DNA of 64,000 bases, taken from contig JAZQHJ010000173.1 of the NCBI GenBank assembly GCA_045540515.1, positions 6,347-70,346 on the forward strand, written 5' to 3'. A program made the translations under genes and the position numbers. The stretch is from Eubacteriales bacterium. GTDB lineage: Bacteria > Bacillota > Clostridia > Oscillospirales > CAG-272. The notes under the pieces were generated by a model. The model had not been told where the DNA came from. It made no database searches and saw nothing but the letters and a program-made list of their open reading frames with translations. Positions 41,009-62,550 of the stretch are shown in pieces; within the stretch, counting starts at the first letter, position 1, and the number at the start of each line of letters is the position of its first letter.

Positions 41009-41022
41009 AAAGGAGATACAAA

Positions 41023-42207: not shown

Positions 42208-42226
42208 AGTATTAGGAGAATAAAAA

Positions 42227-43648
42227 ATGCCAAAGAAAATAATAGTAACCTCAACGGTTAATCAAACATACGAGGTCGTTTTTGACCCAACAAATCCAAC
42301 AGGATATAAAACACTTGGAAGTGGAGGACAGGGAACTGTTTATGTTGCAAAAAGGCAAAGTGACGGAAAGCAATTTGCATTAAAGCTATTTCACAAAAAA
42401 ACCCCACCAAAATTTAACGAAAATATTAAAGAATTGGTTCAAACACCATGTCCACACCCAGCTTTTGTATGGCCACTAGAATTTATTGCCTCAGCCCCAA
42501 ATGGTGGAATTGGCTACATAATGGAAATTTACGATAGCGCCTTTCGCAAATTTGACGACTTTGTAGTTCACGGCACAGCCAAGGTGAAGTCAAGAAGGGT
42601 TCAGTTAAATGCATTAATTGAGCTATACAGTGCTTTTGCAAAGCTACACGCAATTGGTCGTTGCTTTCAGGATATAAATAACGGAGCAATCGTAATTGAC
42701 CCTGAAAAGGGAAGAGTTCGCATTTGCGATTGCGAAAACGTAATTCCAAACGGAGAAAAAATGCCTGTTATGTACGATGACAATGGAAGAGAACAGTATA
42801 TGAAGGGCGTTTCAAGATTTATTGCACCAGAAATAGAGCTAGGTGTAAAAAATCCAGATGTTTATACCGATAGATATTCACTTGCAATTATGTTATTTAT
42901 GCTTCTTACAAATGGACATCCACTCGAAGGATCAAAAAGATTTAAATACAACAAAGAGCAAATTGTAACAGCTGACGTTGAGCATGATATATTTGGAAGA
43001 AATCCAATATTTATATTTAGCTCAGCCAATAAAACAAACCCACCAGATCCAGAAGCTGACAGAGGTCCAATAGCAGCGTGGCCAATGATTCCTGAAACAG
43101 TTAAGGTGTTGTTTGAAAAGACCTTTTCTGCCGGCGCTCCTATAAACGGCTCAACAAGCAATTTGAATAACAGAGAGCAAAGGCCAACAGAAGACCAGTG
43201 GAAAAAGGAGCTTGAGAAATGGGCAGATATGCTAGTTCCTTGCTCTGGCTGTAAAAAATCCTTTGTTGCAAAAATCAATGCAAAGGAGAAAAGGGCGGAT
43301 ACTGTTTGCCCAATATGCAAGAAGGATAACAAGTATAATTTCCCACTTATGGGAGTTTTCAATGGGGGAATTCAAACAAGAATAGTATTGCTTTCACCAA
43401 ATAAGAAGGTGCCATCAGAAACTATTTTTGCTGATAGCTCCCTTGAACCAGTTATGCATATTATTCCATCTAAAAAGGAGCCAGGAACCTATGGAGCTGT
43501 AAATCTATCAAATAATGAATGGATGTGCACAGTAGGCCAACAAGGTACAAGGGTTTCTCCTGGCAAGGTAATAAAGCTAATAGATGGTATGACAATCGAA
43601 ATAGATTATGAAACAAAATGTAAGATTTTAGTCCCTAAAAAGGGTTAA
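42227..43648 (+). CDS. Ser/Thr protein kinase (atypical catalytic loop) with Zn-ribbon and C-terminal beta-rich domain
   Basis: Gly-loop LGSGGQGTVY, Lys in FALKLF, catalytic Asp in CFQDINNGAIVID, DFG-equivalent ICDCEN, APE in FIAPEI, and a CxxC...CxxC ribbon (CSGCKKSF...CPICKKDN). Confidence 0.8.
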   Translation: MPKKIIVTSTVNQTYEVVFDPTNPTGYKTLGSGGQGTVYVAKRQSDGKQFALKLFHKKTPPKFNENIKELVQTPCPHPAFVWPLEFIASAPNGGIGYIMEIYDSAFRKFDDFVVHGTAKVKSRRVQLNALIELYSAFAKLHAIGRCFQDINNGAIVIDPEKGRVRICDCENVIPNGEKMPVMYDDNGREQYMKGVSRFIAPEIELGVKNPDVYTDRYSLAIMLFMLLTNGHPLEGSKRFKYNKEQIVTADVEHDIFGRNPIFIFSSANKTNPPDPEADRGPIAAWPMIPETVKVLFEKTFSAGAPINGSTSNLNNREQRPTEDQWKKELEKWADMLVPCSGCKKSFVAKINAKEKRADTVCPICKKDNKYNFPLMGVFNGGIQTRIVLLSPNKKVPSETIFADSSLEPVMHIIPSKKEPGTYGAVNLSNNEWMCTVGQQGTRVSPGKVIKLIDGMTIEIDYETKCKILVPKKG

Positions 43649-43688
43649 AATAAAAAATTAAAATTCATTATAATGGAGGAAAAAGAAA

Positions 43689-44468: not shown

Positions 44469-44490
44469 TTAAAATAACGCAAATCAGACC

Positions 44491-44516
44491 TGTCCGCCGT
44501 CGTAGGACGGTGGACA
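44491..44516 (+). other. strong intra-operon RNA hairpin (11-bp stem, GTAG loop), no T-run
   Basis: TGTCCGCCGTC gtag GACGGTGGACA (one G-U pair), located 23 nt after the vWA stop codon. Confidence 0.5.
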
Positions 44517-44635
44517 AGCTCTGGTTACAAAAAACAAATGACCTTAAAAGTCCAAGCACGGCTTGGCAAAAAAGAAATAAATTTGAAAACAGCTTGGCAT
44601 ATGCCAATAACATAAAATTAGGAAAAGGAGCTAAA

Positions 44636-45358: not shown

Positions 45359-45403
45359 TTTTTAGTAGCATTAAATTAAATACATATACAGCAAGGAGAC
45401 AAA

Positions 45404-46108: not shown

Positions 46109-46140
46109 ACAGAAAGAAAATATATAAGGAGAAAATAAAT

Positions 46141-47244: not shown

Positions 47245-47279
47245 TAATGGAGAAATAAGCCAAGAGCTTAATTAGAAAT

Positions 47280-47801: not shown

Positions 47802-47813
47802 AAGAGGATAAAA

Positions 47814-50800
47814 ATGAACATATCAGCAAAAGATCTGGCAAAATTTTTACAGAATTCCGTTTCCTTTGATTTTTCAAAGGAAACAATTTTGTCGTACAAT
47901 AAAATACGCAGAAGATATGATGATTTTTATGCCTTGGAGAATAAAAGAGCATTTATTGCCTTGCTTAATGATATAATCGGTGATGACAATCAGTTGGTTG
48001 ATATTTTTGCTGACCTTCAAGCAGCCGATAGAGGATTCAGATTTTTTGCAAACGAGGAAAATAGGCAGTCAAGAAGCGTATTAAACGCAATCGGCTATTT
48101 TTTAAGCGACAGACGATTTGATTATCACAAAAACGATATTGCAAAGGTATATTTTGCAATAAACACATGGCTCTGCTTCTACGGTGCAAATGAGGTTTCA
48201 CTTCACTGGACCGTTTGTCCTCTATGCACAAAAAAGATTGTATTTGGACAATGCAGTAATTTAAGCTGTAAGAAGAAGGAAGAGGAATTTATTCCTATAA
48301 TGCTTGAGCTTCAAGCAATTTTAAAGGCAGAAAACGAAGGCAAGGAAATGCCTTTGCCAAAATATTTTAAAACGATTGAGCCAAATGCCGAGTTTGGCTT
48401 TTACAAAACAAGCATTGAGCAAAAAAGGAACGAAAGAAAGGCGCAACAGGAGCAACAGGAGCAGAAGGACAAAAAGAAAGCAATTGAGCTTGCAGAAAAG
48501 GAGCTTGTAAAGATTTCTGAAAAGGCAAGGCTCGAATCCGAAAAGGAAGTTCCTGATTTTGATTCAATTTTTAAGGAGCTTACAACAAATCCTATAATCC
48601 TTGAAGCACTAAAATACAAGGACAAGAGCTTTGAGAAAAAGCTCAATGCCTTAAAGGAGCAAATTCAAGGCTATAAGGACAGCGTTTATTCAAAAAAGGA
48701 GCAAGAAAGACAAAAGGCAATAGCTATAAATGACTTTAAAGCTTTTTCTCTCCTAAAAGCAAAGCTGGATGCAGAGCTTGCAAACAAGGGAATTGAGCTC
48801 CCTCTTGAAGAGGTTAGAGAGCTTTTGGCAAAGGCAGATGAGGCATTTAATAAGGTTGACACTGCAAATACAAGATACCCAAGCCTGTATTCAAAGTCCG
48901 AGAAGGAAGTCATTAAGGACTACAAGGAAAGCACCAAGCCAAAAACCGAAAAGAGAATCGAGGAAAGAGTCGAGGAGGAACGCCTTGACGACGCCAAGGA
49001 CAAGCTTGTAATAGCTATTGGTGAAATTGAAAAGGAATACGAAAGATGCAAGAATCTCAAGGACGGCGCAAGTGAGCTTTGGGAAAAATTTATAAACGAG
49101 ATTGAGAAAAACGAGGAATATATTGACTGTCGTGAGGTTCCAGCGTGGGATGCTGTTTATTTGGAAATAACAGGACCAATAAAGCAGAAGCTTTCAAATT
49201 TGCTTACAGAGGAAACCGAACAAAAGAAAAAGCACTTTATGTCAGCAGTTGTTCCTTTAAAGGATAAGGTAAGCAAGGCAAAGCCAGCGGACAAGTCTGC
49301 AAATGCTTTATCTAACGAGCTTAAAGCAATAAAAGCTAACAAATACTATTCGAGCATAAAGCAAAGTGCTGAATACAAGAAGGAAATTGCTTGGCTTGAA
49401 AACAAAATAAACGACCTACAAGCAAAGGAAAGGGCATATTTCAAGAGAAGAAAGACAGCCGTTTCAGCAACATCTATAACTATTTTGAGCCTTGCTATAA
49501 TTTTGTACTCACTGCTTGCGTACATTATTCCAATTTCAAGGGTTCAAATCAAATCAACAAAAGCCTCGACTAATAATTATTCAGTTGAAAGCTTAAAGGA
49601 CAACGAAACTGAATTTTTGATAATAGACGAGTATTTACCACATTTCTTTTTACAAAAAAGTAAAAGGGTTTCAAGCATTTCAAGCGAAGCCTTTAAGAAT
49701 AATGAATATCTTAAAAAATGCACACTTCCTGCTTCAATTGAAAGAATAGGAGAGGGAGCATTTGATGGATGCACAAGCCTTGGTCTAGTAGTGCTACAAT
49801 CCAATGAGCCACCAAAAATTGAGAGTAGCTCGTTTGATAATTGTAACACAATTTTTGTCGTGCCAGAGGAAAGCTACTCTGCGTATATGCAAAGCGAGGA
49901 CTGGGCAAGACACAGAACAAAAATTTTCCCAAATTACAACAACCAAGACGGCTTTGGCACTGTTATGTTCGATTCAAATGGTGGAAGCAGTGTTGAAACA
50001 ATGAAAACAATTCAGCTAAATGCACAGGTAAGCACACTTCCAACCCCAACCAAGGAGGGCTACGCCTTTGCAGGCTGGTATTACATTGATGCAGAGGGCA
50101 AGCAAGCCGTAATGAGCAATGATGATGCAGTGTTTTCAACAAGCACAAAGCTTGTTGCCAAGTGGAAGCAGGGCGTATATTCAGTAAGCTTTGAGCAAAA
50201 CGATGGCACAGGAAAAGCAACAAGCGCTGACTATACATATGGTGAAAGATGGGAGTCATTCCCACAGCCTACAAGGGATGGATATACCTTTGAGGGCTGG
50301 TATATAAATGACAAGAAGCTATTAGAGACATCACTTGTTAGCATTACAGGAAATGCAACTGCAATAGCAAAATGGACTGCAAACGAATACAGTGTTAGCT
50401 TTGATTATGCAGGCGGAGAGTCTTCAACAGAGCAGACAACGGTAATTTTTGATGGAAAATACGGAGAGCTTCCACAATCAACAAAAGTGGGCTATACCTT
50501 TGGTGGTTGGAGCTATGAAAATGAAAGCATTAGTTCAAGCACAGTAGTTAAAGCACCAAAAAATCATACGCTTGTTGCAAAATGGATTCCAAACACCTAC
50601 ACAATCCGTTATGAGGCTATGGGTGGAATAATAAGCGAAGAGACTATAATCTGCGAGTACGATAAGCCAGTGACACTCAGCGCTCCGCAAAGAGCTGGTT
50701 ATACCTTTGTTAACTGGGAGTGCGACGGAGTAACCTATCTTGCAGGAGACGAGGTTCTCAATCTTGCAAGCACAAGTGCTGAGTTTGTTTTTGAGGCTAA

Positions 50801-53800
50801 TTGGAAAGCAAACACCTATAAAATTAAATACGATTCAGACGGAGGAAATGTAAACAAGCAGGAGCAGGATTGCATATATGATGTAGATGTCGTGCTTGAA
50901 ACACCGACAAGAAATGGCTATAAGTTCCTTTACTGGTCATATGGCTCTTACAAGCTGTATGGTGGAGAGGTTGCAAGCAATCTTTCATCCACACAAGGGG
51001 ATGAAATACAGTTAAAGGCAATATGGAGAGCAATTACATATACAATTGAATATGATGCAAATGGTGGAGAGCAGGTAAACAATAGCGTTCTATGTACATA
51101 TGATGTTCCTACAATACTAGAAACTCCAACAAGAGATGGCTACACCTTCAAGCATTGGACACACCAAGGGACAATTTATGAGGCTGGACAAAGCATTGTA
51201 AATCTTACAAGCGACGATGAAGGAAAAATCAAGCTTGTTGCCGTTTGGGTCGCTAAGGAAAATGTTATCACCTTTAATCCAAATGGTGGTACAGGAGAAA
51301 TGACCGACGTTAATATACTTTCCGATGGTAGTGTACAATTACCACTTAATGCATATGCAAAAAATGGCTATACCTTTATAGGTTGGAGCACACAGAAAAA
51401 TGGTAGCGTTGAATATAAAGACGGAGATACCTTTGAGGCAGGAACAGAGTCAAGCTATACTCTTTATGCCGTTTGGGAGGCAAATGAAAACAAGCTAATT
51501 CTTTATGCAAATAACGGTACACAGGAGAGCATTGAGCTAACTGTTAAAACAGCACAGACAATAACAATACCTAAAAACACCTTCACACGTGCAGGATATA
51601 CCTTTACAGGCTGGGAGCTGGCAGATGGAACAGGTGCATCCTACAAGGATGAGGCAGAGATAGTAATGCCTGCAAGTGAGGAATCATACCTTGTTGCAAT
51701 ATGGACGGCAAATGATAACACCATTATTTTTGATGCCAATGGAGGAAGTGGAGAAGCAGTTGAACAGCATATCAAGACTGATGAAAATAAGCCACTTATT
51801 GCTTGTAGCTATACAAGAAAGGGTTATAAATTTATAGGCTGGTCAAGGACTAAGGACGGAGGAGTAAACTATTTAGATGGCGCAGGCTATCAAATGGATG
51901 CAAGCGCAACAACAACTCTTTATGCGGTTTGGGAAATCGTAAATTACGATATTACCTATGAGCTAAGCGGAGCAGAAAATTCAAGCTCAAATCCAACAAG
52001 CTATAACATAAGCTCAGGCACAATTGTACTTGAAGCTCCAAGCAAGGCTGGTTATACCTTTGATGGATGGTTCCTTGATGAATTAGCAACTCAACCAATT
52101 ACTCAAATTGATTCAACAAGGCTTGAAGCAATTACTCTTTATGCTAAATTCACAGTAAATACAAATAAGCTTCACTTTAATCCTATGGGAGCAAGTGGAG
52201 AAATGGCAACTCTTGATGTTCAAACGGGCAAGATAGTTACCTTGCCAAGCTGTACATTTACAAAGCCGGGTTACTATTTTGTAGGTTGGAGCACAGAAAA
52301 TGGCGGAGACGTGTCGTATTTTGCTTCCTCATCGTACGAAATGGGAACAGAGGCTGAATATACTCTTTATGCCGTTTGGGATAAGGCTGTATATACCATA
52401 AGCTATGAAACAAACGGTGGAACAAATTCAACCTTAAATCCATCCGAGTACCACATAGAAAGTGCAGAAATTATTTTGAAATCACCTACAAAGGCAGGCT
52501 ATACCTTTGGAGGCTGGTATTCAGAATCAACAATGACAACTGATAAGGTGGAAAAAATATCAGCAGGAAGCACGGGCAATATAACCCTATATGCAAGGTG
52601 GATTGCAAATACAAATACACTCCACTTTAACGCAAACGGCGGAACGGGAGCAATGAATGACGTTAAGCTTCAAACTGGCGAGGAAATGAAAGCATTGCCA
52701 AGCGCTACCTTTGAAAAGGTCGGCTACAACTTTGCAGGTTGGGCACTAACACCTAATGGAAGCTCAATTTATGCAAACGGAGCAAGCTTTGAAATGGGCA
52801 CCGATGCTGAAATGACACTCTATGCAGTATGGACAGACTTTTCATATACTATCTCATATAATTTGGACGGAGGAATAAACAATCAACAAAACCCAAGTGG
52901 CTATGGTGTGGAAACCAACACAATAACACTTGCATCTCCAACCAAGGCAGGCTACACCTTTATGGGATGGTATTCTGAGGATTCCCTTGAAAACAAGATA
53001 ACACAAATTCCAAAGGGAAGCACAGGAAATATTGTGCTTTATGCAAGCTGGGAAGCAAACGAAAATACAATAATATTCAATCCAAATGGCGCAACTGGCT
53101 CAATGAGTAGCATTAAGCTGAAAACAGGCGAGTCGATAAAGCTACCAAGAAATACCTTTAAGAAGGAGGGCCATACCTTTAAGGGCTGGGCAACCACTGC
53201 AAATGGAGCAGTTGCTTATGCTGATGGCTCTGCTTATGTAATGGGTACTGGCTCAACCTATACGCTATATGCAGTATGGCAGGCGAATTCATATGTTGTA
53301 ACATATGCAGACCATTCAAAGACAGTTATCTATGGTCAGTCATACGGAACGCTTTCAAAGCCAAGCACAGAGCCAACAGGATATAAGTTCTCACATTGGA
53401 CATACAATGGAGCAACAATAAGTGCTGGAACAACTGTAACAACTGCGTCAAGCCATACCCTAACACCAGTATGGGTAGCACGTACATATACAGTTTATTA
53501 CGGACCATATTCAAAGACAGTAACATACGATCAGCCATATGGAGAATTTAACACAGTATCAAAGACAGGATATACATTCAATAATTGGAGCTATAATGGA
53601 GCAACAATAACCTCAAATACAATTGTTAAAACGGCATCAGACCATACCTTAAAGGACAACTGGGTAGTAAACTATTACACGATTTCAATTTCTGAAAGCG
53701 GAGCATGGGCAACAGTTGAGGTTAATGGAGTTACATATTCCTCTGAAACTACAATTTCAGCTCCATACAATGCAAGCATAAAGGTTACATTTGGTGCAAA

Positions 53801-54608
53801 TAGCAATTATCAAAATCCTACATGCTCGTACAATGGAACTGCAATATCAAGTGGCTATACAACAACTATGCCAGCAGGCAACGTAAGCATAAGTGCAAGC
53901 GCAACAGAAATTCCATCAGGTGGTAGTTGCTTTGCAAGAGGAACACTGATTGCACTAGGAAATGGCAGAGTGGTTAAGGTCGAGGACCTAAATGTTGGAG
54001 ATGAAATCTTATCATTTGACCACGCAACAGGAAAATTTGTAGCTCAAAGGGTTGGATTTATCTTTAAGGCATTTGAAAGTGTTGAAATAAACGAGCTATT
54101 CTTTGAAAATGGTAGCTCAATTACCTTAACTAACTATGGCGGACACGGTATGTATGATGCTACTCTTGGAGAATATGTACTAATAACACCAGAAAACGTA
54201 AATCAATTTATCGGGCACGAGTTTGCAGTAATGAATGGTGAAAAAATAGGTACAACAAGGCTTGAAGCATATGATTACAGAATTGCATATGTTGAGCGAT
54301 ATGACGTTGTAACCCACAACACCCTTAACTGCATAGCGAATGGATTTATTACATGCTCTGACGTGCTTGTAAGCATTTGCAATGTATTTGAATTTACAAG
54401 CAATTTTACGTATGACCTTGAAAAAATGGAAAACGATATTAACACCTACGGCTTATACACCTATGAGGAGTGGAGTGAATATCTAACCGAGGAGGAATTT
54501 AATTCCTTTGGAGGTGCATACTTCAAGGTAGCTGTTGGCAAGGGCTTAATTACAAGGGATGAAATATTACAGCTCCTTTGGTTCTTGCACAGCTGGAACA
54601 ACATTTAA
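47814..54608 (+). CDS. 2264-aa single-pass membrane protein: cytoplasmic Zn-ribbon + coiled coil, TM helix, BspA-type LRR, 17 Listeria/Bacteroides (Flg_new-type) repeats, beta-rich spacer, C-terminal Hint domain
   Basis: CPLCTKK...CSNLSC ribbon (48215-48269). K/E-rich coiled coil at about aa 170-540. TM helix AVSATSITILSLAIILYSLLAYIIPI (49458-49535). LRR IERIGEGAFDGCTSL. GY(T/K)FxGW occurs 17 times. CFARGTLIALGNG...THNTLNCIANGFITCS is the Hint domain. Confidence 0.8.
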   Translation: MNISAKDLAKFLQNSVSFDFSKETILSYNKIRRRYDDFYALENKRAFIALLNDIIGDDNQLVDIFADLQAADRGFRFFANEENRQSRSVLNAIGYFLSDRRFDYHKNDIAKVYFAINTWLCFYGANEVSLHWTVCPLCTKKIVFGQCSNLSCKKKEEEFIPIMLELQAILKAENEGKEMPLPKYFKTIEPNAEFGFYKTSIEQKRNERKAQQEQQEQKDKKKAIELAEKELVKISEKARLESEKEVPDFDSIFKELTTNPIILEALKYKDKSFEKKLNALKEQIQGYKDSVYSKKEQERQKAIAINDFKAFSLLKAKLDAELANKGIELPLEEVRELLAKADEAFNKVDTANTRYPSLYSKSEKEVIKDYKESTKPKTEKRIEERVEEERLDDAKDKLVIAIGEIEKEYERCKNLKDGASELWEKFINEIEKNEEYIDCREVPAWDAVYLEITGPIKQKLSNLLTEETEQKKKHFMSAVVPLKDKVSKAKPADKSANALSNELKAIKANKYYSSIKQSAEYKKEIAWLENKINDLQAKERAYFKRRKTAVSATSITILSLAIILYSLLAYIIPISRVQIKSTKASTNNYSVESLKDNETEFLIIDEYLPHFFLQKSKRVSSISSEAFKNNEYLKKCTLPASIERIGEGAFDGCTSLGLVVLQSNEPPKIESSSFDNCNTIFVVPEESYSAYMQSEDWARHRTKIFPNYNNQDGFGTVMFDSNGGSSVETMKTIQLNAQVSTLPTPTKEGYAFAGWYYIDAEGKQAVMSNDDAVFSTSTKLVAKWKQGVYSVSFEQNDGTGKATSADYTYGERWESFPQPTRDGYTFEGWYINDKKLLETSLVSITGNATAIAKWTANEYSVSFDYAGGESSTEQTTVIFDGKYGELPQSTKVGYTFGGWSYENESISSSTVVKAPKNHTLVAKWIPNTYTIRYEAMGGIISEETIICEYDKPVTLSAPQRAGYTFVNWECDGVTYLAGDEVLNLASTSAEFVFEANWKANTYKIKYDSDGGNVNKQEQDCIYDVDVVLETPTRNGYKFLYWSYGSYKLYGGEVASNLSSTQGDEIQLKAIWRAITYTIEYDANGGEQVNNSVLCTYDVPTILETPTRDGYTFKHWTHQGTIYEAGQSIVNLTSDDEGKIKLVAVWVAKENVITFNPNGGTGEMTDVNILSDGSVQLPLNAYAKNGYTFIGWSTQKNGSVEYKDGDTFEAGTESSYTLYAVWEANENKLILYANNGTQESIELTVKTAQTITIPKNTFTRAGYTFTGWELADGTGASYKDEAEIVMPASEESYLVAIWTANDNTIIFDANGGSGEAVEQHIKTDENKPLIACSYTRKGYKFIGWSRTKDGGVNYLDGAGYQMDASATTTLYAVWEIVNYDITYELSGAENSSSNPTSYNISSGTIVLEAPSKAGYTFDGWFLDELATQPITQIDSTRLEAITLYAKFTVNTNKLHFNPMGASGEMATLDVQTGKIVTLPSCTFTKPGYYFVGWSTENGGDVSYFASSSYEMGTEAEYTLYAVWDKAVYTISYETNGGTNSTLNPSEYHIESAEIILKSPTKAGYTFGGWYSESTMTTDKVEKISAGSTGNITLYARWIANTNTLHFNANGGTGAMNDVKLQTGEEMKALPSATFEKVGYNFAGWALTPNGSSIYANGASFEMGTDAEMTLYAVWTDFSYTISYNLDGGINNQQNPSGYGVETNTITLASPTKAGYTFMGWYSEDSLENKITQIPKGSTGNIVLYASWEANENTIIFNPNGATGSMSSIKLKTGESIKLPRNTFKKEGHTFKGWATTANGAVAYADGSAYVMGTGSTYTLYAVWQANSYVVTYADHSKTVIYGQSYGTLSKPSTEPTGYKFSHWTYNGATISAGTTVTTASSHTLTPVWVARTYTVYYGPYSKTVTYDQPYGEFNTVSKTGYTFNNWSYNGATITSNTIVKTASDHTLKDNWVVNYYTISISESGAWATVEVNGVTYSSETTISAPYNASIKVTFGANSNYQNPTCSYNGTAISSGYTTTMPAGNVSISASATEIPSGGSCFARGTLIALGNGRVVKVEDLNVGDEILSFDHATGKFVAQRVGFIFKAFESVEINELFFENGSSITLTNYGGHGMYDATLGEYVLITPENVNQFIGHEFAVMNGEKIGTTRLEAYDYRIAYVERYDVVTHNTLNCIANGFITCSDVLVSICNVFEFTSNFTYDLEKMENDINTYGLYTYEEWSEYLTEEEFNSFGGAYFKVAVGKGLITRDEILQLLWFLHSWNNI
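49956..53666 (+). repeat. in-frame tandem protein-repeat array (17 units of ~63-75 aa, four subtypes)
   Basis: The repeats fall into four subtypes, which I label A-D. Reading along the gene, the order is D x6 (aa 715-1146), A x3 (1150-1375), alternating B-A x3 (1376-1822) and C x2 (1826-1951). Each unit carries a GY(T/K/N/Y)F.(G/N/H/Y)W core. Confidence 0.8.
53928..54356 (+). other. Hint (Hedgehog/intein-like, BIL-type) domain
   Basis: It starts at Cys2039 (CFARGTLI, the intein block A pattern) and contains VVTHNTLNCIANGF (block F-like). It ends ITCS instead of the canonical terminal HN. An 83-aa tail follows. Confidence 0.7.
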
Positions 54609-54615
54609 AAGAAAG

Positions 54616-54645
54616 GTAAGTGGCAGAATAAGCTCTGCCACTTAC
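54616..54645 (+). other. perfect 12-bp stem hairpin between the giant gene and the ATPase gene (possible attenuator/stabiliser)
   Basis: GTAAGTGGCAGA ataagc TCTGCCACTTAC, followed by TAAAATT, which is only a weak T-tract. Confidence 0.5.
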
Positions 54646-54667
54646 TAAAATTGCAAGAGGGGAAAAT

Positions 54668-57600
54668 ATGCTAATAAATGAATTTATTAAGGCAGGAGAG
54701 GTATGGGATGCGTATAAGCAATCATATCGTTCTCAAAAAGAAAGCTACAAAAAAAGCTACGAGACTCAAAAAGCGCAAAAGATAAACGAGCAAGGTACAC
54801 TTTATAAAAAGATTAATGACCTTAAATTAAAAATCAATCAAAATGAAGAAAGCCTTCGTGCGCTTGTTTCAGAAACCTTTGAAAGCGTTGCATTTGAAAG
54901 GATAAAAAGGTCAGTGAGCGCTTTTGGCATCACCTCAAGCAAAAGGGACAGAAGCATTGATATTGAAAACGTCAAGAGTGAGTTAAAAAGGGCACTGCTA
55001 GAAAAGAAGGCTTGCGAGGCAAGAGTCCCAAAAATTCAAGATGAAATAAACGAGCTTGACAAGGCATATCAAGAAAAAGATGCTAAGCTTGATAATGACT
55101 ATCAAAGCAAAAAGCAAGAAACAGAGAAAAAGGTTATTGCAAAATATGATGCCGAGACAAAAAGATGCGTTCGTAAATATAGCTCTAAAACAACAGTTCC
55201 AGAGCCACCAAGCCTACCACCTAAAAAGGTTATTCTTGGAACTCAAAGAGCGGTGGTTTCAACGCTTAACGATGTTTTACCAGGTCCAATATATATGCCA
55301 TATGAGGTGGATGTAAAGGACAATGGAAGCTTTGCAATAAACGTAAGCCAAAATGCACTAAATAGTAGAATCACAGAAAGCATAATGGTAGGAATGCTTC
55401 TTAAATACATAGATTCATTTCCTGCAAAAAAGCTTCATATAGGTGTATTTAGTCCAACACTTGCATCCTTTAACCATTTGAATGCTCTTTACAACGCAAT
55501 GAAGAGTGAGGGCTGTACAGTGCTTCCAGAGGGCATTAGCTCGGCAAATAGAATAGATGAGCTGTTTAATGCAATTGATGTAAAGGCAAAGGGAATAAGG
55601 GATGATAAAATTTTACGCTCGGGACTTAGCAACATTTTTGACTTATATGATGCAGGTCAGACAACCGAGACCTTTACTGTCGTTGTTTTACATAATGCTC
55701 TATCAAGCCTAAATGATGAGGAAATAAACAAGCTTTCCAGCTTCATAAAGGGCTATCACAGATGTGGAGTTAGATTTATAATAGTAGAGGATTTTTCATC
55801 TATAAATACAAGAAGCTCAATAAATTATGCAAGAGCACTTGATGAAATAAAGCAGAGCTGTACAAGAATTGATATAAATGAAAAAGGAATAGCAAGGGTT
55901 GATGGTATAGAAACCTCTATGATGTCCTTAATGCCTGATTTTGATGAAATTAAGGTTTATAACTACTGTATTGATTATCTTAAAAAGGAGAAAAAATCAG
56001 CATACGTCACCTACGAAAGCATTGGCTTTGGCAAGGAGACACCTGACGCTGATGAATATACAAGAATACTAATACCAGTTGCAACAACTGGCTCTGGGGC
56101 TTGGCATATGAAGTTTGCTTGCGAAATCAACGAATCAAAGCTGGCTCCGATTGCAAATCTTATACTTGGAGAGTCTGGCTCGGGAAAATCCTGCTTGATT
56201 GAATCAATGATATATAATGCTTCAATGAAATATTCTCCTGATGATTTAATTTTCCATTTTCTTGATTTTAAACAGAATTCAACAGCGGGCTTATATCTTA
56301 ATGAAACATACAAAATTCCCCATATAAAGGTGCTAACGGCAGATAGCAAGCCAGAAGAGGCAAGCTTTATTCTTGATAATATATTAGAAGAAAACATAAA
56401 AAGAATAAAGACATTTTCCGATCTTGGAGAAAAGTACAAAACAGCAATAAAAAATATAGCACAATATAATAAGTTTATTGTAACTAACGGCGTACAGATT
56501 TCAAAAATGCCACGACTTATTATAATAGTGGACGAGTGCCAATATCTTTTTGCATCTGACGCACTTGTAGATAAGCTGACTTCAATAGTAAGACTAGGAA
56601 GAAGCCAAGGTATTCACATAGTTCTAGCGACACAAACACTAAACTCAACCATGAGAAGCTGGGTATCTAAATTTGTTAATGGATTATATGTTTATTCATC
56701 TCCACAAGAGGATATAGAGGCAATTTTGGATAAGCAATATCATAAGCGTGTTAACACCGAGGCTCCTGTGGGATCGTTTCAATGCTTTGCTTCGGATAAT
56801 GGAGGAAGCTTGTGTACAAAGATAACCCCTGCCTTCTATGGAGATCCACCAGAGCCTATAAGCTATTCAAACGCAATAAGAAGCAAATGGAGTAGCTATC
56901 CATGCGACACTGTTGTAATAGGCGAAAAGAGAGATCTTTATATAAATAACGAGGATTATCAAAAAATCCTTGGCAAGCTTGATAATTATAAAATTGCCTT
57001 TGGAGAAAATTATCAAAACAGAGAGCCATTTTATTTTGAGTTGAAGCAAAAAATAGGACAAGGTGTTGATAAAATAGGTTCAGTTGTCCTTATTGGAGAC
57101 AATGATGTTATTGCATCAAGTCTTTGTACGTCTGTTTTGTTAAGTGCAAAAAGAAACAAAACAAAGGTATATGCAATAGATATGTCAAGGTCACAAACAC
57201 TTGCAACAATAAAAAGCAAATGCTTTGATTCTGATTCATCAATCTTTGTAGGAAAGGGCGCTGATTATAACTCTACCATTGCAAAGGTTTATATGGAATA
57301 TGAAGCAAGATGCGCTGAGTTCAACAATGACCCGTCTGCAAAATTTGAGCCCATTATTTTAATGATAAATTCTGCTGACCGTATAAATGATTATAATAAC
57401 AATACATTGTATGAAATTAAGGCCGAGCAAAAGGAGAAAAAATCCAGCGCTGATTCAAATAATCCGTGCATAGGCATTCCTGGATATGCTCCGCTTGATG
57501 ATTATATAAGTGATGAGGAAAGCGATACAAATAATGAGTATTCTGCAAAGATAAAGGTAAGGGACGCTCTTTACGAAATTCTTAAAAAAGGTGCAGATTA

Positions 57601-57871
57601 TGGAATAGTTGTGTGCCTGTGGGCAAACGACAATGAAGAAATTAAAGCAAAGCAAACGGGCTTTATCAAGCTAGCGTTTAACGCAATCCCTTCAAACATC
57701 TCATCATATTTTGATAATTCGTTCTATGAAAGAATGACTGATGGTATGAGTCAGACCATGGCATTTGTTAACCATTACGATGCTACTGTGGGAAGATTGA
57801 ACAAGCGTATCAGGGTATATCAATATGATTTGGATGACGAGGATTTAATTAAATTTATTAGAACATTATAA
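54668..57871 (+). CDS. FtsK/SpoIIIE-family ATPase, three P-loop-like modules (only the middle one intact), N-terminal coiled coil, no TM or FHA domain
   Basis: Walker A GESGSGKS (aa 501-508), Walker B IIIVDECQ (aa ~618-625) and LGRSQGIHIVLATQ. The flanking modules are degenerate (FTVVVLHN...GVRFIIVED and SVVLIGDND...PIILMINSADR). Confidence 0.8.
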   Translation: MLINEFIKAGEVWDAYKQSYRSQKESYKKSYETQKAQKINEQGTLYKKINDLKLKINQNEESLRALVSETFESVAFERIKRSVSAFGITSSKRDRSIDIENVKSELKRALLEKKACEARVPKIQDEINELDKAYQEKDAKLDNDYQSKKQETEKKVIAKYDAETKRCVRKYSSKTTVPEPPSLPPKKVILGTQRAVVSTLNDVLPGPIYMPYEVDVKDNGSFAINVSQNALNSRITESIMVGMLLKYIDSFPAKKLHIGVFSPTLASFNHLNALYNAMKSEGCTVLPEGISSANRIDELFNAIDVKAKGIRDDKILRSGLSNIFDLYDAGQTTETFTVVVLHNALSSLNDEEINKLSSFIKGYHRCGVRFIIVEDFSSINTRSSINYARALDEIKQSCTRIDINEKGIARVDGIETSMMSLMPDFDEIKVYNYCIDYLKKEKKSAYVTYESIGFGKETPDADEYTRILIPVATTGSGAWHMKFACEINESKLAPIANLILGESGSGKSCLIESMIYNASMKYSPDDLIFHFLDFKQNSTAGLYLNETYKIPHIKVLTADSKPEEASFILDNILEENIKRIKTFSDLGEKYKTAIKNIAQYNKFIVTNGVQISKMPRLIIIVDECQYLFASDALVDKLTSIVRLGRSQGIHIVLATQTLNSTMRSWVSKFVNGLYVYSSPQEDIEAILDKQYHKRVNTEAPVGSFQCFASDNGGSLCTKITPAFYGDPPEPISYSNAIRSKWSSYPCDTVVIGEKRDLYINNEDYQKILGKLDNYKIAFGENYQNREPFYFELKQKIGQGVDKIGSVVLIGDNDVIASSLCTSVLLSAKRNKTKVYAIDMSRSQTLATIKSKCFDSDSSIFVGKGADYNSTIAKVYMEYEARCAEFNNDPSAKFEPIILMINSADRINDYNNNTLYEIKAEQKEKKSSADSNNPCIGIPGYAPLDDYISDEESDTNNEYSAKIKVRDALYEILKKGADYGIVVCLWANDNEEIKAKQTGFIKLAFNAIPSNISSYFDNSFYERMTDGMSQTMAFVNHYDATVGRLNKRIRVYQYDLDDEDLIKFIRTL

Positions 57872-57883
57872 AGGAGAACTTTT

Positions 57884-58171
57884 ATGAAGCTTCCAGAAAG
57901 AATAGAAGAAATAAATATGGATCCCGAAGCTGTAAGGGAGCAAATCAAAAAAATATCTGGAGAATTTGAAAAAATAGGCGAAATTAGCGAAAGAACGAAA
58001 AACAATCTAGTTGCGCTTGAGGGTAACTTTAAAAGTGGAAACTATATAAGAGCAGCAGAGGCAATAGGATCTGTAAGAGCTAAAATGACAAAAGCAGAGG
58101 TGGAATTTGATGAGCTTATTCGCTCTTGCGACTCCCTTGTAAAGAAAGTTGAAGAAATAACAAAAAGATAA
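57884..58171 (+). CDS. WXG100-like small helical protein (FKSGN variant), paralog of 58454-58741
   Basis: 95 aa and predicted all-helical. The central turn LEGNFKSGNYIRAAEAIGS sits where WXG100 proteins carry W-x-G. The gene lies immediately downstream of the FtsK-like ATPase. Confidence 0.5.
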   Translation: MKLPERIEEINMDPEAVREQIKKISGEFEKIGEISERTKNNLVALEGNFKSGNYIRAAEAIGSVRAKMTKAEVEFDELIRSCDSLVKKVEEITKR

Positions 58172-58182
58172 GGAGGCTAATT

Positions 58183-58440
58183 ATGGCACAGGGACAAATC
58201 ATAGAAACAAAGGGCATATTGCTTCAAGTTATAAAGGATTTAACAAAATATAAGGATGAAGTTGATAAAATAATGAAATCAATTCTTCAAAAGACCAATG
58301 AGCTAAATAACGATTGGAAGGATGCTCAATACACCAAGTTTCAGGCTTATATTGAGGATATTAAAAAAGGGATCGATAATGATTTGAAAGAGCTTGATGA
58401 ATGTGTTGCAGTATTAAAGAAAAGAGCGGAGCTCTATTAA
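58183..58440 (+). CDS. WXG100-like small helical protein (WKD variant)
   Basis: 85 aa. The central NNDWKDAQYTKFQAYIEDI resembles the W-x-G-x-A-x-x-F core with Gly replaced by Asp. Confidence 0.5.
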   Translation: MAQGQIIETKGILLQVIKDLTKYKDEVDKIMKSILQKTNELNNDWKDAQYTKFQAYIEDIKKGIDNDLKELDECVAVLKKRAELY

Positions 58441-58453
58441 TTAAGGACTAAAA

Positions 58454-58741
58454 ATGGGAAATATGGATGCATATGTAGATACCAACGCATTGAGAGATGG
58501 TGGTTCAAGTCTTGTGCAAAAAGCAGAAGGAATGCTTGAAATAACAAATCAACTCAAAAATAATCTTAACGCAATTTCTAATTATTTTAAAAGTGGAAAT
58601 CAAGAGCGTGCAGCAGAGGCAGTTGGAAATTCAGCCGTCGTTGTAAAAGACGTAGCTGATAAGCTGGAAATGCTTAACAAAAAGATGAATGAGCTTGCAT
58701 GCTGTATTGACGAATACGAGGAATGCACCTATGGCAAGTAA
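58454..58741 (+). CDS. WXG100-like small helical protein (FKSGN variant)
   Basis: 95 aa. The central ISNYFKSGNQERAAEAVGNS is paralogous to 57884-58171. The tail reads CCIDEYEECTYGK. Confidence 0.5.
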   Translation: MGNMDAYVDTNALRDGGSSLVQKAEGMLEITNQLKNNLNAISNYFKSGNQERAAEAVGNSAVVVKDVADKLEMLNKKMNELACCIDEYEECTYGK

Positions 58742-58759
58742 TAATAAGAGGTGAATCTT

Positions 58760-59320
58760 ATGGATATACAAAACCAAAATTTTATAAGCTTTATAAACCT
58801 AGCAGAGCAGAAATTTGAGGCAAAGTATAAGGAATATATTGAAAAGAAAAGAAACGACGAAGCAGAGGCAAACCGTAAGCTAGGCGAAATATCCAATTTG
58901 CTAAATCAGCTATCAAATCACAAAAGCATGATAAAAAATCCTATCCTTGCCCAAAGATTTCTTGATATTTTGAATAGAATTAGCCAAACAAATATCAGCG
59001 GAACCCCAAGCTATGCAAAGCTTGTATATTATTTAAATCGCTTAAATGATATTAAGCATGATGAATTTGCTTTAAAGAACAATCCTAGCTATTGCAATAC
59101 TGTTTTGACAAAAATAGCACAGCAATATATACTCATATACAGAAAGCTTGAAAGCGACAAAAAATCAATTGAAGTGCAATTTAAGGCTGAGTCTGATAGG
59201 CTTTTTAATGAATACAAGAATGCTATGCAAGAAAACGCCTATGCTGTTGTTAAAAGAGCAAGACAATATGCAGGAGTCGAGGCAGATGCATTAATAAAGC
59301 AAATTGAAGATAGCATATGA
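58760..59320 (+). CDS. hypothetical helical protein (186 aa)
   Basis: ATG at 58760 follows AGAGGTG. The protein is K/E/N-rich and helical, with no recognised family. Confidence 0.4.
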   Translation: MDIQNQNFISFINLAEQKFEAKYKEYIEKKRNDEAEANRKLGEISNLLNQLSNHKSMIKNPILAQRFLDILNRISQTNISGTPSYAKLVYYLNRLNDIKHDEFALKNNPSYCNTVLTKIAQQYILIYRKLESDKKSIEVQFKAESDRLFNEYKNAMQENAYAVVKRARQYAGVEADALIKQIEDSI

Positions 59321-59328
59321 GGTGAAAA

Positions 59329-59601
59329 ATGGCTAAAAATAAAGTAAAAAGCACGGTTCAAAACGCGAGCCGACGTGTTGATTATGATGCCAACACACAG
59401 GTCGCACTTGCAAGCTATTTTGGCGCACCAAGCATGGTGGATGAAGCAACTGTAAAGGAATTTGAAAAGGATTTTAATGCTGATAACAAATATACAAGGG
59501 GAACACATTTCAAGGAATTTATTTCAAGAAATCGCAGACCAATTACAATATCTGCAATAGTGGTTGCCGTAGTGTCTGTTCTTCTTGTGATTATATTCTA
59601 G
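59329..59601 (+). CDS. tail-anchored small membrane protein
   Basis: 90 aa with a single C-terminal TM segment ITISAIVVAVVSVLLVIIF. RBS is GAGGTG. Confidence 0.45.
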   Translation: MAKNKVKSTVQNASRRVDYDANTQVALASYFGAPSMVDEATVKEFEKDFNADNKYTRGTHFKEFISRNRRPITISAIVVAVVSVLLVIIF

Positions 59602-59602
59602 T

Positions 59603-59971
59603 ATGTGGAACAGGAACAAAATGGAACAAATAAACCCAAAAAGTCAAGGCAAGAGAACGGCAATGATAACGCTTATATGCGTTGTGCTAATGCTTATAAT
59701 GTCAGCCCTTGCATATATTCTTGGCATAAAGGCACAGGAGCTTATTCGCTTCGGGAAAAGCCCCACAGCCTTTGCAATAGCAACAGTGGTTGTAGCAATT
59801 TTGGCATTTATTTTAGTGGCACTGGCACTTTTCTTTGGCATAAAAATGCTAAGAATGTTAAATGGCAGAGAAATGGGCTATTATATAATTATCAGCATAT
59901 ATTTGATTTTTATTGCATTTATGCTATTGCTTTCAATAAGTGGCATAATGATTGCAATTCCGCTAATATAA
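59603..59971 (+). CDS. small polytopic membrane protein (3-4 TM)
   Basis: Hydrophobic segments MITLICVVLMLIMSALAYILGI, AFAIATVVVAILAFILVALALFFGI and YYIIISIYLIFIAFMLLLSISGIMIAIPLI. The true start may be ATG 59621. Confidence 0.45.
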   Translation: MWNRNKMEQINPKSQGKRTAMITLICVVLMLIMSALAYILGIKAQELIRFGKSPTAFAIATVVVAILAFILVALALFFGIKMLRMLNGREMGYYIIISIYLIFIAFMLLLSISGIMIAIPLI

Positions 59972-59979
59972 AAGCAAAA

Positions 59980-60012
59980 GGAACAGACGGTAGGTCTGTT
60001 CCTTTTTATATT
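59980..60012. terminator. bidirectional terminator closing the island
   Basis: Stem GGAACAGAC/GTCTGTTCC with loop GGTAG, an A-run upstream and TTTTTATATTTT downstream. It is shared with the convergent minus-strand gene. Confidence 0.75.
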
Positions 60013-60475: not shown

Positions 60476-62005
60476 TTAAAGTGTCTTTGATGCAAGGTCC
60501 TCAAGCGCAAGACCTGCCTTGTATGCCTTCATAAAGCTAGCAAACTTAGCCTTTTCCTTGCTTGAGGCAATGGTTGTTTCCTTCTTTGCACCACTAAATA
60601 GCTTGTCAAGGAAGCTACCCAAGGAAGCCTCATTTTCTGTGCAGAAAAGAGCAAGTAGAGCAATTCCCCAAGCACCGCCCTCACCTGCATTTTTCATAAC
60701 AGTAATGGGCGCACCAAGTGCAGCACTCATTGCGTTTGCACCGATGAAAGGAGTTTTAAAGAAGCCACCATGACCACAAATTTCGTCAATTTGAACGTTT
60801 TCCTTTTCAAGCACCTCCATACCAACACTCATAGCACCAAGCGCAGAGTATAGCTGCATTTGCATAAAGTTTGCAAGAGTTAGCTTGCCAGCTGGATTTC
60901 TTGCAATAAGAGGAATACCTCTTTGAATATCAACAATTGGCTCACCGGATAAGAAGTTGTAGCCTACAAGACCACCAACCTCATCATCACTGCTTGCACT
61001 AACCTCATATAGCATATCAAAAAGCTTACCCTTATTCATTGATAGCCCTGCAAGTGTAAGTAGCTCATCAAACAAGGATGCCCATGCGTTAATTTCAGAT
61101 GTAAAGTTGTTTGCGTGTACCATTGCAACAGTATCACCACAAGGTGTTGCAACAACGTCAATTGAGGTGTTAACTGTGGAAAGTGGCTTTTCAAGAACTA
61201 CCATAGCAAAGGCAGAGGTTCCTGCTGAAACATTACCTGTTCTTGGCTTGATTGCATTTGTAGCCACCATGCCAGTGCCTGCATCACCCTCAGGAGGACA
61301 AAGCTTAGCGCCAGCCTTAAGCTTACCACTTACGTCAAGAAGTCTAGCACCCTCTTCTGTAAGAGCACCCGCATCCTCACCTGCTAGAAGTGGTGTAGGT
61401 AGCAAGGACTCAAATGGTGTATCTATGCCGTGAGTCTTTAAAAGCTTATTGAATTTTGCAAGTCTTTCCTTGTCGTAGTCGTCTGCTATGGTTGGGAACA
61501 TTCCTGCTGCATCACCAATTCCAAGCACCCTTTTGCCTGTTAACAAATAATGCACATAGCCTGCAAGGGTTGTAAGGAATGTAATGCTTGGAACGTGCTC
61601 CTCATTATCCAAAACAGCCTGATAGTAGTGTGAGGTTGACCAACGCTGTGGCATATTAAAGTCAAGCTCCCTTGTTAAAATTTCGGCAGCCTTGGCAGTT
61701 GTAGTGTTTCTCCACGTTCTAAATGGAACAAGAAGGTTGTCGTCCTTGTCAAAGGCAAGATAGCCGTGCATCATAGCAGAAATTCCAATGCCGTCAAGCT
61801 CAGTAATTTCGCCATAGCTTTTAACAAGAGATGCGTATGAATCCTGTAAGCCAGAGATAACGGCATCAAGAGAATATGTCCAATAGCCGTTTTCAAGCTG
61901 ATTTTCCCATTCGTGTGAGCCCTGTGCAAGCACAGCACCGCTTTCGTTTATAAGAACAGATTTGATTCTAGTTGAGCCAAGCTCAATTCCAAGTATTTTT
62001 TTCAT
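60476..62005 (-). CDS. FGGY-family carbohydrate kinase
   Basis: The N-terminus ILGIELGSTRIKSVLI is the actin-fold phosphate-1 motif. The protein is 509 aa. Substrate was not assignable. Confidence 0.7.
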   Translation of the reverse strand: MKKILGIELGSTRIKSVLINESGAVLAQGSHEWENQLENGYWTYSLDAVISGLQDSYASLVKSYGEITELDGIGISAMMHGYLAFDKDDNLLVPFRTWRNTTTAKAAEILTRELDFNMPQRWSTSHYYQAVLDNEEHVPSITFLTTLAGYVHYLLTGKRVLGIGDAAGMFPTIADDYDKERLAKFNKLLKTHGIDTPFESLLPTPLLAGEDAGALTEEGARLLDVSGKLKAGAKLCPPEGDAGTGMVATNAIKPRTGNVSAGTSAFAMVVLEKPLSTVNTSIDVVATPCGDTVAMVHANNFTSEINAWASLFDELLTLAGLSMNKGKLFDMLYEVSASSDDEVGGLVGYNFLSGEPIVDIQRGIPLIARNPAGKLTLANFMQMQLYSALGAMSVGMEVLEKENVQIDEICGHGGFFKTPFIGANAMSAALGAPITVMKNAGEGGAWGIALLALFCTENEASLGSFLDKLFSGAKKETTIASSKEKAKFASFMKAYKAGLALEDLASKTL

Positions 62006-62136
62006 AAAAATGCTCCTTTAAGTATATTACAAGGTAATTGTATCATATTTATTAGAATAAAACAAGCAAAAATATTGACAAGATTAAAACAAATATGTTA
62101 AAATCTAACTGTATTAAATTTAAAAGGAGAAATATT

Positions 62137-62550
62137 ATGAACGTACAATCAGTTATCAATTATTGCTCAGGTCTTTCATACCGTCAGCTTGAAAACTTCG
62201 CAGGTGAAAACTATCTTGAGGTTTACAACTATATGAAGGCAAACTATGACGGAGAAAAGGTAAACACACTTCTTATCGGCTCAATCTTTACATGCGTTGC
62301 AGCTGACGGAAAGTTTAATGATGCAGAATGGCAATTCATTTCAAGCTTCATTGGTGGTTACAGCTATGATGAAGCATATGCAGTTGCAGGTGAGTTTTAT
62401 AATGATGAGGCTCAGGACATCGTTGCTCAGCTTGCTAGCCTATTCCCAAGCCACATAAGAGATGCTTTCATCAGCCTTTGTCTTGCAGTTCTTTGTGTTG
62501 ACGGCAGAGTTGCAGATTACGAAAGATACTTCCTTAACAAGATTTTATAA
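62137..62550 (+). CDS. TerB-like domain protein (137 aa)
   Basis: ATG at 62137 follows AAAGGAGA. It carries paired motifs VAADGKFNDAEWQFI and LCVDGRVADYERYFL (DG-x5-E twice). Confidence 0.6.
   Translation: MNVQSVINYCSGLSYRQLENFAGENYLEVYNYMKANYDGEKVNTLLIGSIFTCVAADGKFNDAEWQFISSFIGGYSYDEAYAVAGEFYNDEAQDIVAQLASLFPSHIRDAFISLCLAVLCVDGRVADYERYFLNKIL

Follow-up and report, generated by a model that had tools for sequence, protein, structure and literature searches.

A WXG100-family protein between two F-x-S-x-N hairpins follows an EssC-like ATPase in a reduced vWA/PP2C/kinase cassette

Three small open reading frames (ORF1, ORF2 and ORF3) directly follow the gene of an EssC/EccC-like ATPase of the FtsK family in a 64,000-nucleotide stretch of the genome of a Eubacteriales bacterium (contig JAZQHJ010000173.1), and this whole stretch is called the window below. 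A preliminary description of the DNA had proposed that all three products are WXG100-type proteins in a type VII secretion system (T7SS) setting. Profile comparisons with reversed controls place ORF2 in the WXG100 family and ORF1 and ORF3 in a family of their own. Comparison with related loci identifies a conserved four-hairpin unit, followed in the relatives by putative toxins, and the window holds a reduced copy of this cassette.

Results

Three small genes downstream of the ATPase gene

The coordinates of the three ORFs and of the surrounding features are listed in Table 1. The gaps separating the ATPase gene, ORF1, ORF2 and ORF3 are, in this order, 12, 11 and 13 nucleotides (nt), and the ribosome-binding sites upstream of ORF1, ORF2 and ORF3 read AGGAG, AAGGAGG and AAGGA. 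The lengths of 95, 85 and 95 amino acids (aa), the strong ribosome-binding sites, the spacing of 11-13 nt and the peptide strings quoted in the preliminary description were all found in the DNA.

The same ordered set, with the ATPase followed by proteins of 95-98, 84-87 and 92-96 aa, recurs in at least nine other loci (L002-L009, L010 and L012), and because of this recurrence in related loci the three ORFs are real genes under selection. The fragment of a further locus, L013, is 1.6 kb long and covers just the later small ORFs of the set. The window and L002-L009 are distant from each other, with a protein identity of only 22-37%. Each of ORF1, ORF2 and ORF3 is a singleton at 90% identity in a collection of 15 billion proteins, and a word-indexed homolog search with ORF2 returned ORF2 alone.

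ORF1 and ORF3 are paralogs, in agreement with the preliminary description. BLASTP aligned them with 42% identity over 52 aa (E 6e-11), and the comparison of the ORF1-family and ORF3-family profiles by hhalign gave a probability of 99.4% (E 7e-22). No pairwise similarity was detected between ORF1 and ORF2.

All three products (95, 85 and 95 aa) have the WXG100 length of ~100 residues, and the adjacent ATPase gene is of the FtsK/SpoIIIE (EssC/EccC) type expected next to WXG100 genes, a linkage kept in all related loci. None of the three carries W-x-G at the turn, as had been observed before: ORF2 has W-K-D there, and ORF1 and ORF3 have F-K-S. The TIGR04197-type T7SS small-protein families, to which a match had been considered, gave none: the three small proteins had no match to TIGR04197/DUF3130 at E <= 1, and the LXG, DUF3130/TIGR04197 and DUF3958 family models had no match either.

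Table 1. Features of the island and of its flanks in the window (positions count from the first letter of the window)
Feature	Position	Strand	Remarks
GH5 cellulase gene	38810-39907		Flank of the island
288-aa HExxH protein	40142-41008	+	Motif HELGH; first island gene
394-aa protein	41023-42207	+	Second island gene; 448 aa in L002
Ser/Thr protein kinase	42227..43648	+	Pfam Pkinase; CxxC...CxxC zinc ribbon (CSGC...CPIC) after the kinase domain
vWA-domain protein	43689-44468	+	One of four
vWA-domain protein	44510-45358	+	One of four
vWA-domain protein	45404-46108	+	One of four
PP2C phosphatase	46141-47244	+	
vWA-domain protein	47280-47801	+	One of four
2264-aa protein	47814..54608	+	Cytoplasmic coiled-coil N-part, membrane helix 554-572, LRR_5, 16 Flg_new repeats, C-terminal Hint (domain calls and predictions)
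Hairpin, 13-bp stem	54616-54645		Scored terminator-like on the - strand
EssC/EccC-like FtsK-family ATPase	54668..57871	+	1067 aa; directly 5' of ORF1
ORF1	57884..58171	+	95 aa; helical hairpin (model), F-x-S-x-N family, position 1 of the hairpin set
ORF2	58183..58440	+	85 aa; WXG100-family protein (profile match), W-K-D replacing W-x-G, position 2
ORF3	58454..58741	+	95 aa; ORF1 paralog, position 3; C-terminal (I/V)-(E/D)-E-Y-x4-Y tail typical of position-3 proteins
Conserved soluble protein	58760..59320	+	186-189 aa; likely start ATG 58760, not GTG 58751
Conserved 90-aa protein	59329..59601	+	Single C-terminal membrane helix 72-90, predicted tail-anchored
122-aa protein	59603..59971	+	Three predicted membrane helices; counterpart in L002
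Bidirectional terminator-like hairpin	59976..60006	.	13-bp stem; closes the operon
FGGY sugar kinase gene	60476-62005		Flank of the island; convergent
TerB-domain ORF	62095-62550		Pfam TerB 27.9 vs 24.4 cut-off

ORF2 as a WXG100 protein with a W-x-D turn

ORF2 scored 28.2 against the Pfam WXG100 model (PF06013; gathering cut-off 27.3), and PF06013 is precomputed for the database protein identical to ORF2. The expectation that standard annotation would leave this protein unlabeled was therefore wrong, since Pfam WXG100 already flags it. The TIGR03930 score (25.1) lies below the stricter cut-off of that model, and a YwqH-like match (E 0.02) is likewise below cut-off; ORF1 and ORF3 had no YwqH-like match.

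The residues invariant in the ORF2 family form the pattern W-x-D-x-Q-Y-x-x-F, in which the turn D is invariant. Searched against the PDB, the ORF2-family profile found its best biological matches in Helicobacter pylori HP0062 (E 3e-4), Thermomonospora curvata EsxA/B (4lws; E 9e-4), Staphylococcus aureus EsxA (E 2e-3) and Streptococcus agalactiae SAG1039 (E 0.025), and in the alignments to these solved WXG100 structures the W-x-D and W-x-G turns are in register. The profile made from the seven family sequences in reversed order returned no WXG100 structure at E <= 1, and WXG100 was not among the Pfam families listed for any of the reversed ORF2-family sequences. Because the reversed controls are negative, the assignment is direction-specific, and by these profile matches ORF2 is a genuine WXG100 protein with a W-x-D turn. 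The full-length alignment to solved WXG100 proteins suggests that it folds as a helix-turn-helix.

HP0062 (PDB 2gts, 3fx7), whose gene lies near that of the FtsK-like HP0066, is the best solved match of the ORF2-family profile. It has the same W-x-D-A turn ('SWRDARRDKF' vs 'DWKDAQYTKF' in ORF2) and the same length; unlike features are the low identity, the different phylum and the absence of a reported F-x-S-x-N partner of HP0062.

The F-x-S-x-N family of ORF1 and ORF3

A HMMER scan of 1.84 billion representatives with a profile of ORF1 and ORF3 detected only 21 proteins at E <= 0.001, all of 90-97 aa. ORF1 orthologs were found in nine loci, and in every locus that was read the family adjoins the same ATPase type on its 3' side. 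The proteins at positions 1 and 3 of the hairpin set have the motif F-x-[ST]-x-N-[YF]-x-[RK], and across 31 members F and N are invariant (F49 and N53 in ORF1). In the same 31 members the G of the window 'FKSGN' occupies a variable position; the 'aromatic-x(1-2)-G/D' turn rule suggested earlier for all three proteins does not fit these two, whose motif is F-x-[ST]-x-N. We consider, from sequence comparison, that F-x-S-x-N proteins constitute a rare, uniform and unnamed family, separate from the W-x-D WXG100 type.

The AlphaFold2 model of ORF1, built from an alignment of ORF1 with ORF3 as the sole second row, has a mean pLDDT (predicted local distance difference test) of 84. Two helices (14-50 and 54-93) are connected by the turn S51-G52-N53, just past F49, so the model presents ORF1 as a helix-turn-helix in the WXG100 layout, and ORF3 probably has the hairpin fold by paralogy with ORF1. 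The proposed layout of ~90-aa helical hairpins beside an FtsK-like ATPase is thus sustained in size, helices, EssC/EccC-like neighbor and the ORF1 turn S51-N53, but the setting is not that of a canonical T7SS.

The 22 aa around the F-x-S-x-N turn were compared among the window and the L002-L012 orthologs. In this region the proteins at positions 1 and 3 are more alike within a locus than between loci: the mean identity is 0.61 within and 0.40 between loci, and it is 0.46 and 0.39 for the orthologs. For ORF1 and ORF3 of the window the identity is 0.64, and 10 of the 14 identical residues have identical codons. The likeness of the turns within a locus suggests gene conversion or co-adaptation to a common partner.

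Related loci: four alternating hairpins and putative toxins

In L002-L009 the gene order is ATPase, 95 aa, 84-87 aa (Pfam WXG100 in most), 92-93 aa and 84-91 aa. The hairpin genes are followed by at least one protein of 389-478 aa, small ORFs, a 186-189-aa protein and a 90-95-aa protein, and they are preceded by the kinase, vWA proteins, PP2C and usually a giant Flg_new repeat protein. Three more distant F-x-S-x-N loci were traced; L010 and L012 have an ATPase of ~1030-1060 aa with four small ORFs, and the third is L013. The proteins at positions 2 and 4 have a common motif, W-x-D-x-x-Y-x-x-F (hhalign 88%), and the two hairpin types alternate in every complete locus as FxSxN, WxD, FxSxN, WxD. 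The conserved unit is four hairpins, and the window has three.

The 389-478-aa effectors of the relatives have a common helical N-terminal domain of ~200 aa with 'PNPEY', a Gly/Ser linker and variable C-terminal domains. The predicted tips are an LHH nuclease in L004 and L008 (41.8 and 38.1 bits vs the 23.3 cut-off), an HExxH domain in L002 and, in L004 and L005, a Peptidase_C39_2-like domain that scores below cut-off. YwqH-like matches in these effectors were sub-threshold only. Each effector gene is followed by small ORFs, which are candidate immunity genes, and by this domain architecture the effectors show the polymorphic-toxin pattern.

The gene after the fourth hairpin encodes the PNPEY helical domain alone (~195-199 aa) in L010 (6915-7514), L012 (4423-5010) and L013 (763-1356). 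Because these distant loci encode the domain without a toxin tip, the conserved fifth component is the PNPEY domain and not the toxin. The window copy has lost both the fourth hairpin and the toxin; for this reason it is a reduced, degenerate and perhaps partly disabled version of the cassette.

Other genes were observed beside one of the related cassettes: on the 3' side of the L004 cassette (L004 18646-23180) lie the genes of a 692-aa TIR_2 protein and of a transglutaminase-kinase fusion, suggesting a conflict-system neighborhood.

The ATPase

The ATPase has a single Pfam FtsK_SpoIIIE domain (residues 497-658) and partial NCBIfam matches to EccCa, EssC and EccCb. The only Walker A (501 GESGSGKS) and the only Walker B (618 IIIVDE) lie in the central domain, and all seven relatives keep both; the P-loop-like domains on either side, N- and C-terminal, are degenerate. 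Searched against the PDB, the ATPase profile ranked T. curvata EccC (3e-17), EccC5 and Bacillus subtilis YukB ahead of FtsK (7.5e-6). The AlphaFold2 model is poor overall (pLDDT 60), with a confident N-terminal coiled-coil hairpin at residues 3-164 (helices 3-86 and 96-164). Foldseek with this low-confidence model returned EccC and EssC first and aligned 978 columns to the three-domain EccC 4nh0. The motifs and profile matches identify the protein as an EssC/EccC-type ATPase, predicted to be membrane-less and to have a single active site.

Six full-length relatives of the ATPase, with 39-45% identity, were found in the word-indexed database. A scan of genome contigs with the ATPase returned solely a 767-aa FtsK-like gene from a Deltaproteobacteria metagenome-assembled genome, which is unrelated. 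The 59 nt that separate the gene of the 2264-aa protein from the ATPase gene contain a hairpin with a 13-bp stem, which could serve for mRNA processing or attenuation on the + strand.

Extent and gene content of the operon

The island spans 40142 to 59971 and encodes, in order, the 288-aa HExxH protein, the 394-aa protein, the kinase, three vWA proteins, PP2C, the fourth vWA protein, the 2264-aa protein, the ATPase, the three hairpins and three small genes. The 288-aa HELGH protein is 30% identical to the putative toxin domain (HExxH) at the C-terminus of the L002 effector of 478 aa (tblastn E 1e-17; L002 14366-15802), and a stand-alone copy of the effector tip thus appears to head the operon. 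The 394-aa protein had no Pfam, PADLOC or PDB sequence match; its stretch AIILFEILFACHPYKG is reminiscent of a kinase C-lobe, and it also contains a CAKC motif. A kinase joined to a zinc ribbon, as encoded by the next gene, is the TerY-P-type kinase architecture (PMC11090510). In PADLOC, the four vWA proteins and PP2C had no match and the kinase matched generic kinase models only.

Counterparts of the 2264-aa protein occupy this place in L005, L007 and, split in two, in L004; L006, L008 and L009 probably have one too, and L002 has none. Its N-terminal cytoplasmic coiled-coil region of ~550 aa carries a CPLC...C...C cluster. The soluble 186-189-aa protein follows the hairpin/toxin region in L002, L004, L005 and L008 and had no family match among the Pfam, NCBIfam and PADLOC models.

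On one side of the island is a GH5 cellulase gene and on the other a gene for an FGGY sugar kinase. Both flanks recur in L002, indicating a common insertion site, even though the island proteins of the window and of L002 are only 33-46% identical. The genes 5' of the island encode glycoside hydrolases and sugar enzymes. A CoCoNuT/McrBC core on this side was ruled out, the genes there being those of carbohydrate-metabolism enzymes, and no helicase is found near the window either. A TerB-domain ORF lies just past the island, after the convergent FGGY kinase gene, and the TerB ORF of L002 (19046-19459) likewise lies past the island and a convergent FGGY kinase gene. The proximity of TerB to the island may be a coincidence or a link to the Ter/TerY theme.

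Discussion

Comparative genomics has described cassettes of this type before, and the window holds a reduced copy. A passage of a 2016 paper (PMC4978471), citing Anantharaman, Iyer and Aravind (2012), lists 'WxG, FtsK ... LHH nuclease' among the components of clusters with the TerY-P triad (the vWA protein TerY, PP2C and a kinase). The same paper regards WxG together with FtsK as a minimal type VII set and names HP0062/HP0066 as paralogs, HP0062 being that of the WxG gene linked to TerY-P (PMC4978471). Bell et al. (2024, PMC11090510) described vWA-flanked EssC homologs in which just one of three ATPase domains, the central one, is active and an N-terminal coiled coil replaces the FHA domains and membrane helices; a nuclease is associated with them. 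They also reported a 'WXG100 without the motif' partner of similar predicted shape and suggested 'a different mechanism' from T7SS (PMC11090510).

The present cassette was compared with these published vWA/TerY-P cassettes by their descriptions. Alike are the EssC-like ATPase, in which a long coiled coil forms the N-terminus and FHA domain and membrane helices are missing, the Walker motifs kept only in the central of three ATPase-like domains, one hairpin with a W-x-G-type motif (here ORF2) and one without (here ORF1/ORF3), and the flanking vWA genes with those of PP2C and of a zinc-ribbon kinase. The complete relatives also have a nearby nuclease effector (LHH here, LHH or REase-like in the published cassettes), which is missing from the window. 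Unlike the published cassettes, no McrBC/CoCoNuT core or helicase is found near the window, the family has four hairpins (three in the window) instead of two, and the effectors of the relatives appear to be polymorphic toxins built on the common PNPEY helical domain. Further differences are the 2264-aa LRR/Flg_new/Hint surface protein inside the operon of the window, the low GC content (~36-42%) and the glycoside hydrolase neighbors.

The canonical T7SSb (Ess/Yuk) has a membrane-anchored EssC with FHA domains, together with EsaA, EssA, EssB and EsaB/YukD, and none of these was found here. The canonical T7SS setting assumed in the preliminary description is thus replaced by a vWA-PP2C-kinase (TerY-P-like) cassette, whose ATPase has neither a membrane helix nor an FHA domain and whose proteins gave no EssA/EssB/EsaA-type matches.

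Several precedents are known for hairpins of this kind. ESAT-6 and CFP-10 pair side by side as a four-helix bundle. In the EsxA/EsxC and EsxB/EsxD pairs of S. aureus, one member is a hairpin without W-x-G that the WXG100 model does not recognize and the other is a true WXG100 protein. In T7SSb, the small hairpins Lap1 and Lap2 bind the helical N-terminal domain of the LXG toxin, leading to recognition by EssC, and toxin-immunity cassettes lie downstream.

We consider it rather probable that the hairpin pairs of this family act on the membrane-less single-site ATPase as adaptors or co-substrates for PNPEY toxins under vWA/PP2C/kinase control, with the window holding a reduced copy. Each F-x-S-x-N hairpin would pair side by side with a W-x-D hairpin, producing a heterodimeric four-helix bundle like those of ESAT-6/CFP-10 and EsxA/EsxC. 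The bundles would dock on the C-terminal, degenerate domain of the ATPase and, once docked, would serve as co-substrates or targeting adaptors for the helical PNPEY-domain protein, which is toxin-tipped in several loci (LHH nuclease, C39-like peptidase, HExxH). Gating of the activity would probably fall to the kinase, PP2C and vWA proteins encoded in this operon. We infer the pairing, the docking on the ATPase, the export and the regulation from gene order, precedent and toxin architecture.

A number of results, in this paragraph and the next, weigh against this proposal. No hydrophobic segment or membrane helix was found in the ATPase and no FHA match to it in Pfam or NCBIfam, and no EssA, EssB, EsaA or YukD homologs were detected among the operon proteins with the same two collections; because of the missing membrane anchor and the missing homologs, export is uncertain. 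None of the four hairpin families shows a canonical C-terminal export signal (YxxxD/E or HxxxD/ExxhxxxH) as a conserved feature. By tblastn, the window has no trace of the fourth hairpin (W-x-D, position 4) and no PNPEY-domain protein, nuclease or coiled-coil effector. It is possible, if on the whole unlikely, that the same proteins secrete nothing and operate as an intracellular defense or abortive-infection module, in which a soluble ATPase hexamer, held through its coiled coil, would use the hairpins as regulators or adaptors; an infection or stress signal from the vWA/PP2C/kinase proteins would make it act on a nuclease within the cell by unfolding, activation or release. An ATPase with neither membrane helix nor FHA domain and hairpins without a canonical export motif would suit such a module, as would the TIR and transglutaminase-kinase genes that adjoin the L004 cassette; the TerY-P-type triad is tied in the literature to DNA-processing and anti-phage systems (PMC4978471, PMC11090510), and Bell et al. 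argue for a non-T7SS mechanism (PMC11090510). The effectors of the relatives argue the other way, since their common N-domain, swappable tips, tandem arrays and small downstream genes look like those of polymorphic toxins and are typical of exported interbacterial toxins. Among the products of the operon are also a large surface protein and small membrane proteins that are conserved, and neither the PADLOC TerY-P model nor any other defense model of PADLOC matches the vWA or PP2C proteins.

The relation of ORF1 and ORF3 to WXG100 proteins is affected by the reversed controls. The Pfam WXG100 scores of ORF1 (17.2 bits) and ORF3 (15.6 bits) are both below cut-off, and sub-threshold Pfam WXG100 matches occur in 14 of the 31 family members read forward (best E 2.4e-4) and equally in 14 of 31 reversed (best E 2.7e-5). 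The forward hhalign comparison of the F-x-S-x-N and W-x-D families (62-79%, score 30.9) places F on W, and the reversed comparison scores 29.5. Both kinds of match were dropped as support for a WXG100 assignment of ORF1 and ORF3, since reversed sequences score alike. Foldseek of the ORF1 model against the PDB returned generic helical hairpins only, none at E <= 0.001, and cannot discriminate. The PDB search with the forward F-x-S-x-N profile gave SAG1039 as the best WXG100 structure (26.4 bits, E 6e-5), followed by gbs1074 (1.2e-4) and EsxA (8e-4), with full-length alignments that place F on W and S on G. With the reversed profile, the best WXG100 structure was S. aureus EsxA (20.9 bits, E 2.8e-3), and SAG1039 had E 0.25. 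S. agalactiae SAG1039/gbs1074 (sagEsxA-like WXG100; PDB 3gvm, 3o9o) is thus the best solved match of the profile, by a margin of only ~5 bits over the reversed control, and its homology is not established.

These controls leave some room for the view that ORF1 and ORF3 have nothing to do with WXG100 biology and are generic coiled-coil hairpins, for instance structural or regulatory subunits of the ATPase, whose likeness to WXG100 would be that of any helical hairpin of 90 aa. Sub-threshold Pfam matches and an hhalign score that reversed sequences reproduce, and a Foldseek result limited to generic hairpins, are what it would predict. We regard it as improbable, because ORF1 and ORF3 homologs alternate strictly with genuine W-x-D WXG100 genes right after an EccC/EssC-type ATPase gene in every locus examined. 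The full-length forward alignments to SAG1039 and gbs1074, and the much poorer reversed E value for SAG1039, also speak against it, and so do the exact precedents of S. aureus EsxC and EsxD. The motif-less WXG100 partner of Bell et al. (PMC11090510) is another such case. ORF1 and ORF3 resemble WXG100 proteins in size and shape and in where the turn and the genes lie; common ancestry with WXG100 is plausible but, because the weak matches are equaled by reversed sequences, unproven. The proposal that all three proteins are WXG100-type therefore stands for ORF2 and stays unproven for ORF1 and ORF3, and of the hairpin prediction and remote homology anticipated for them, the hairpin was obtained for ORF1 by modeling and the WXG100 structures for ORF2 by profile search. 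More generally, sub-threshold WXG100 matches to helical hairpins recur with reversed sequences, which makes them unfit as evidence of homology.

A more detailed scheme can be put forward only tentatively, and we think it doubtful as a whole. In it, the unnamed F-x-S-x-N partner family and the W-x-D WXG100 proteins would together form a two-pair adaptor of four hairpins, by which PNPEY toxins would be loaded onto a soluble EssC-like motor with a single site. The toxins would leave the cell by a new kind of route, either by way of the two conserved membrane proteins (90 and 122 aa) or along the cytoplasmic tail of the giant Flg_new/Hint surface protein, and the vWA/PP2C/kinase proteins would act as the switch.

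Cassettes of WXG100 proteins and a membrane-less EssC-like ATPase with vWA/PP2C/kinase triads have been noted twice, by comparative genomics alone. The window copy is a less informative member of the family, because it is without the fourth hairpin and the toxin. The family adds several handles, namely the strictly alternating four-hairpin set, the invariant F-x-S-x-N turn of the non-WXG partner, recognizable polymorphic toxins on a common helical domain and candidate membrane components, and together these make the question of secretion or intracellular defense directly testable. If the two-pair adaptor and the novel export route were true, the family would represent a type VII-like system of its own for toxin delivery in low-GC anaerobes, gated by phosphorylation.

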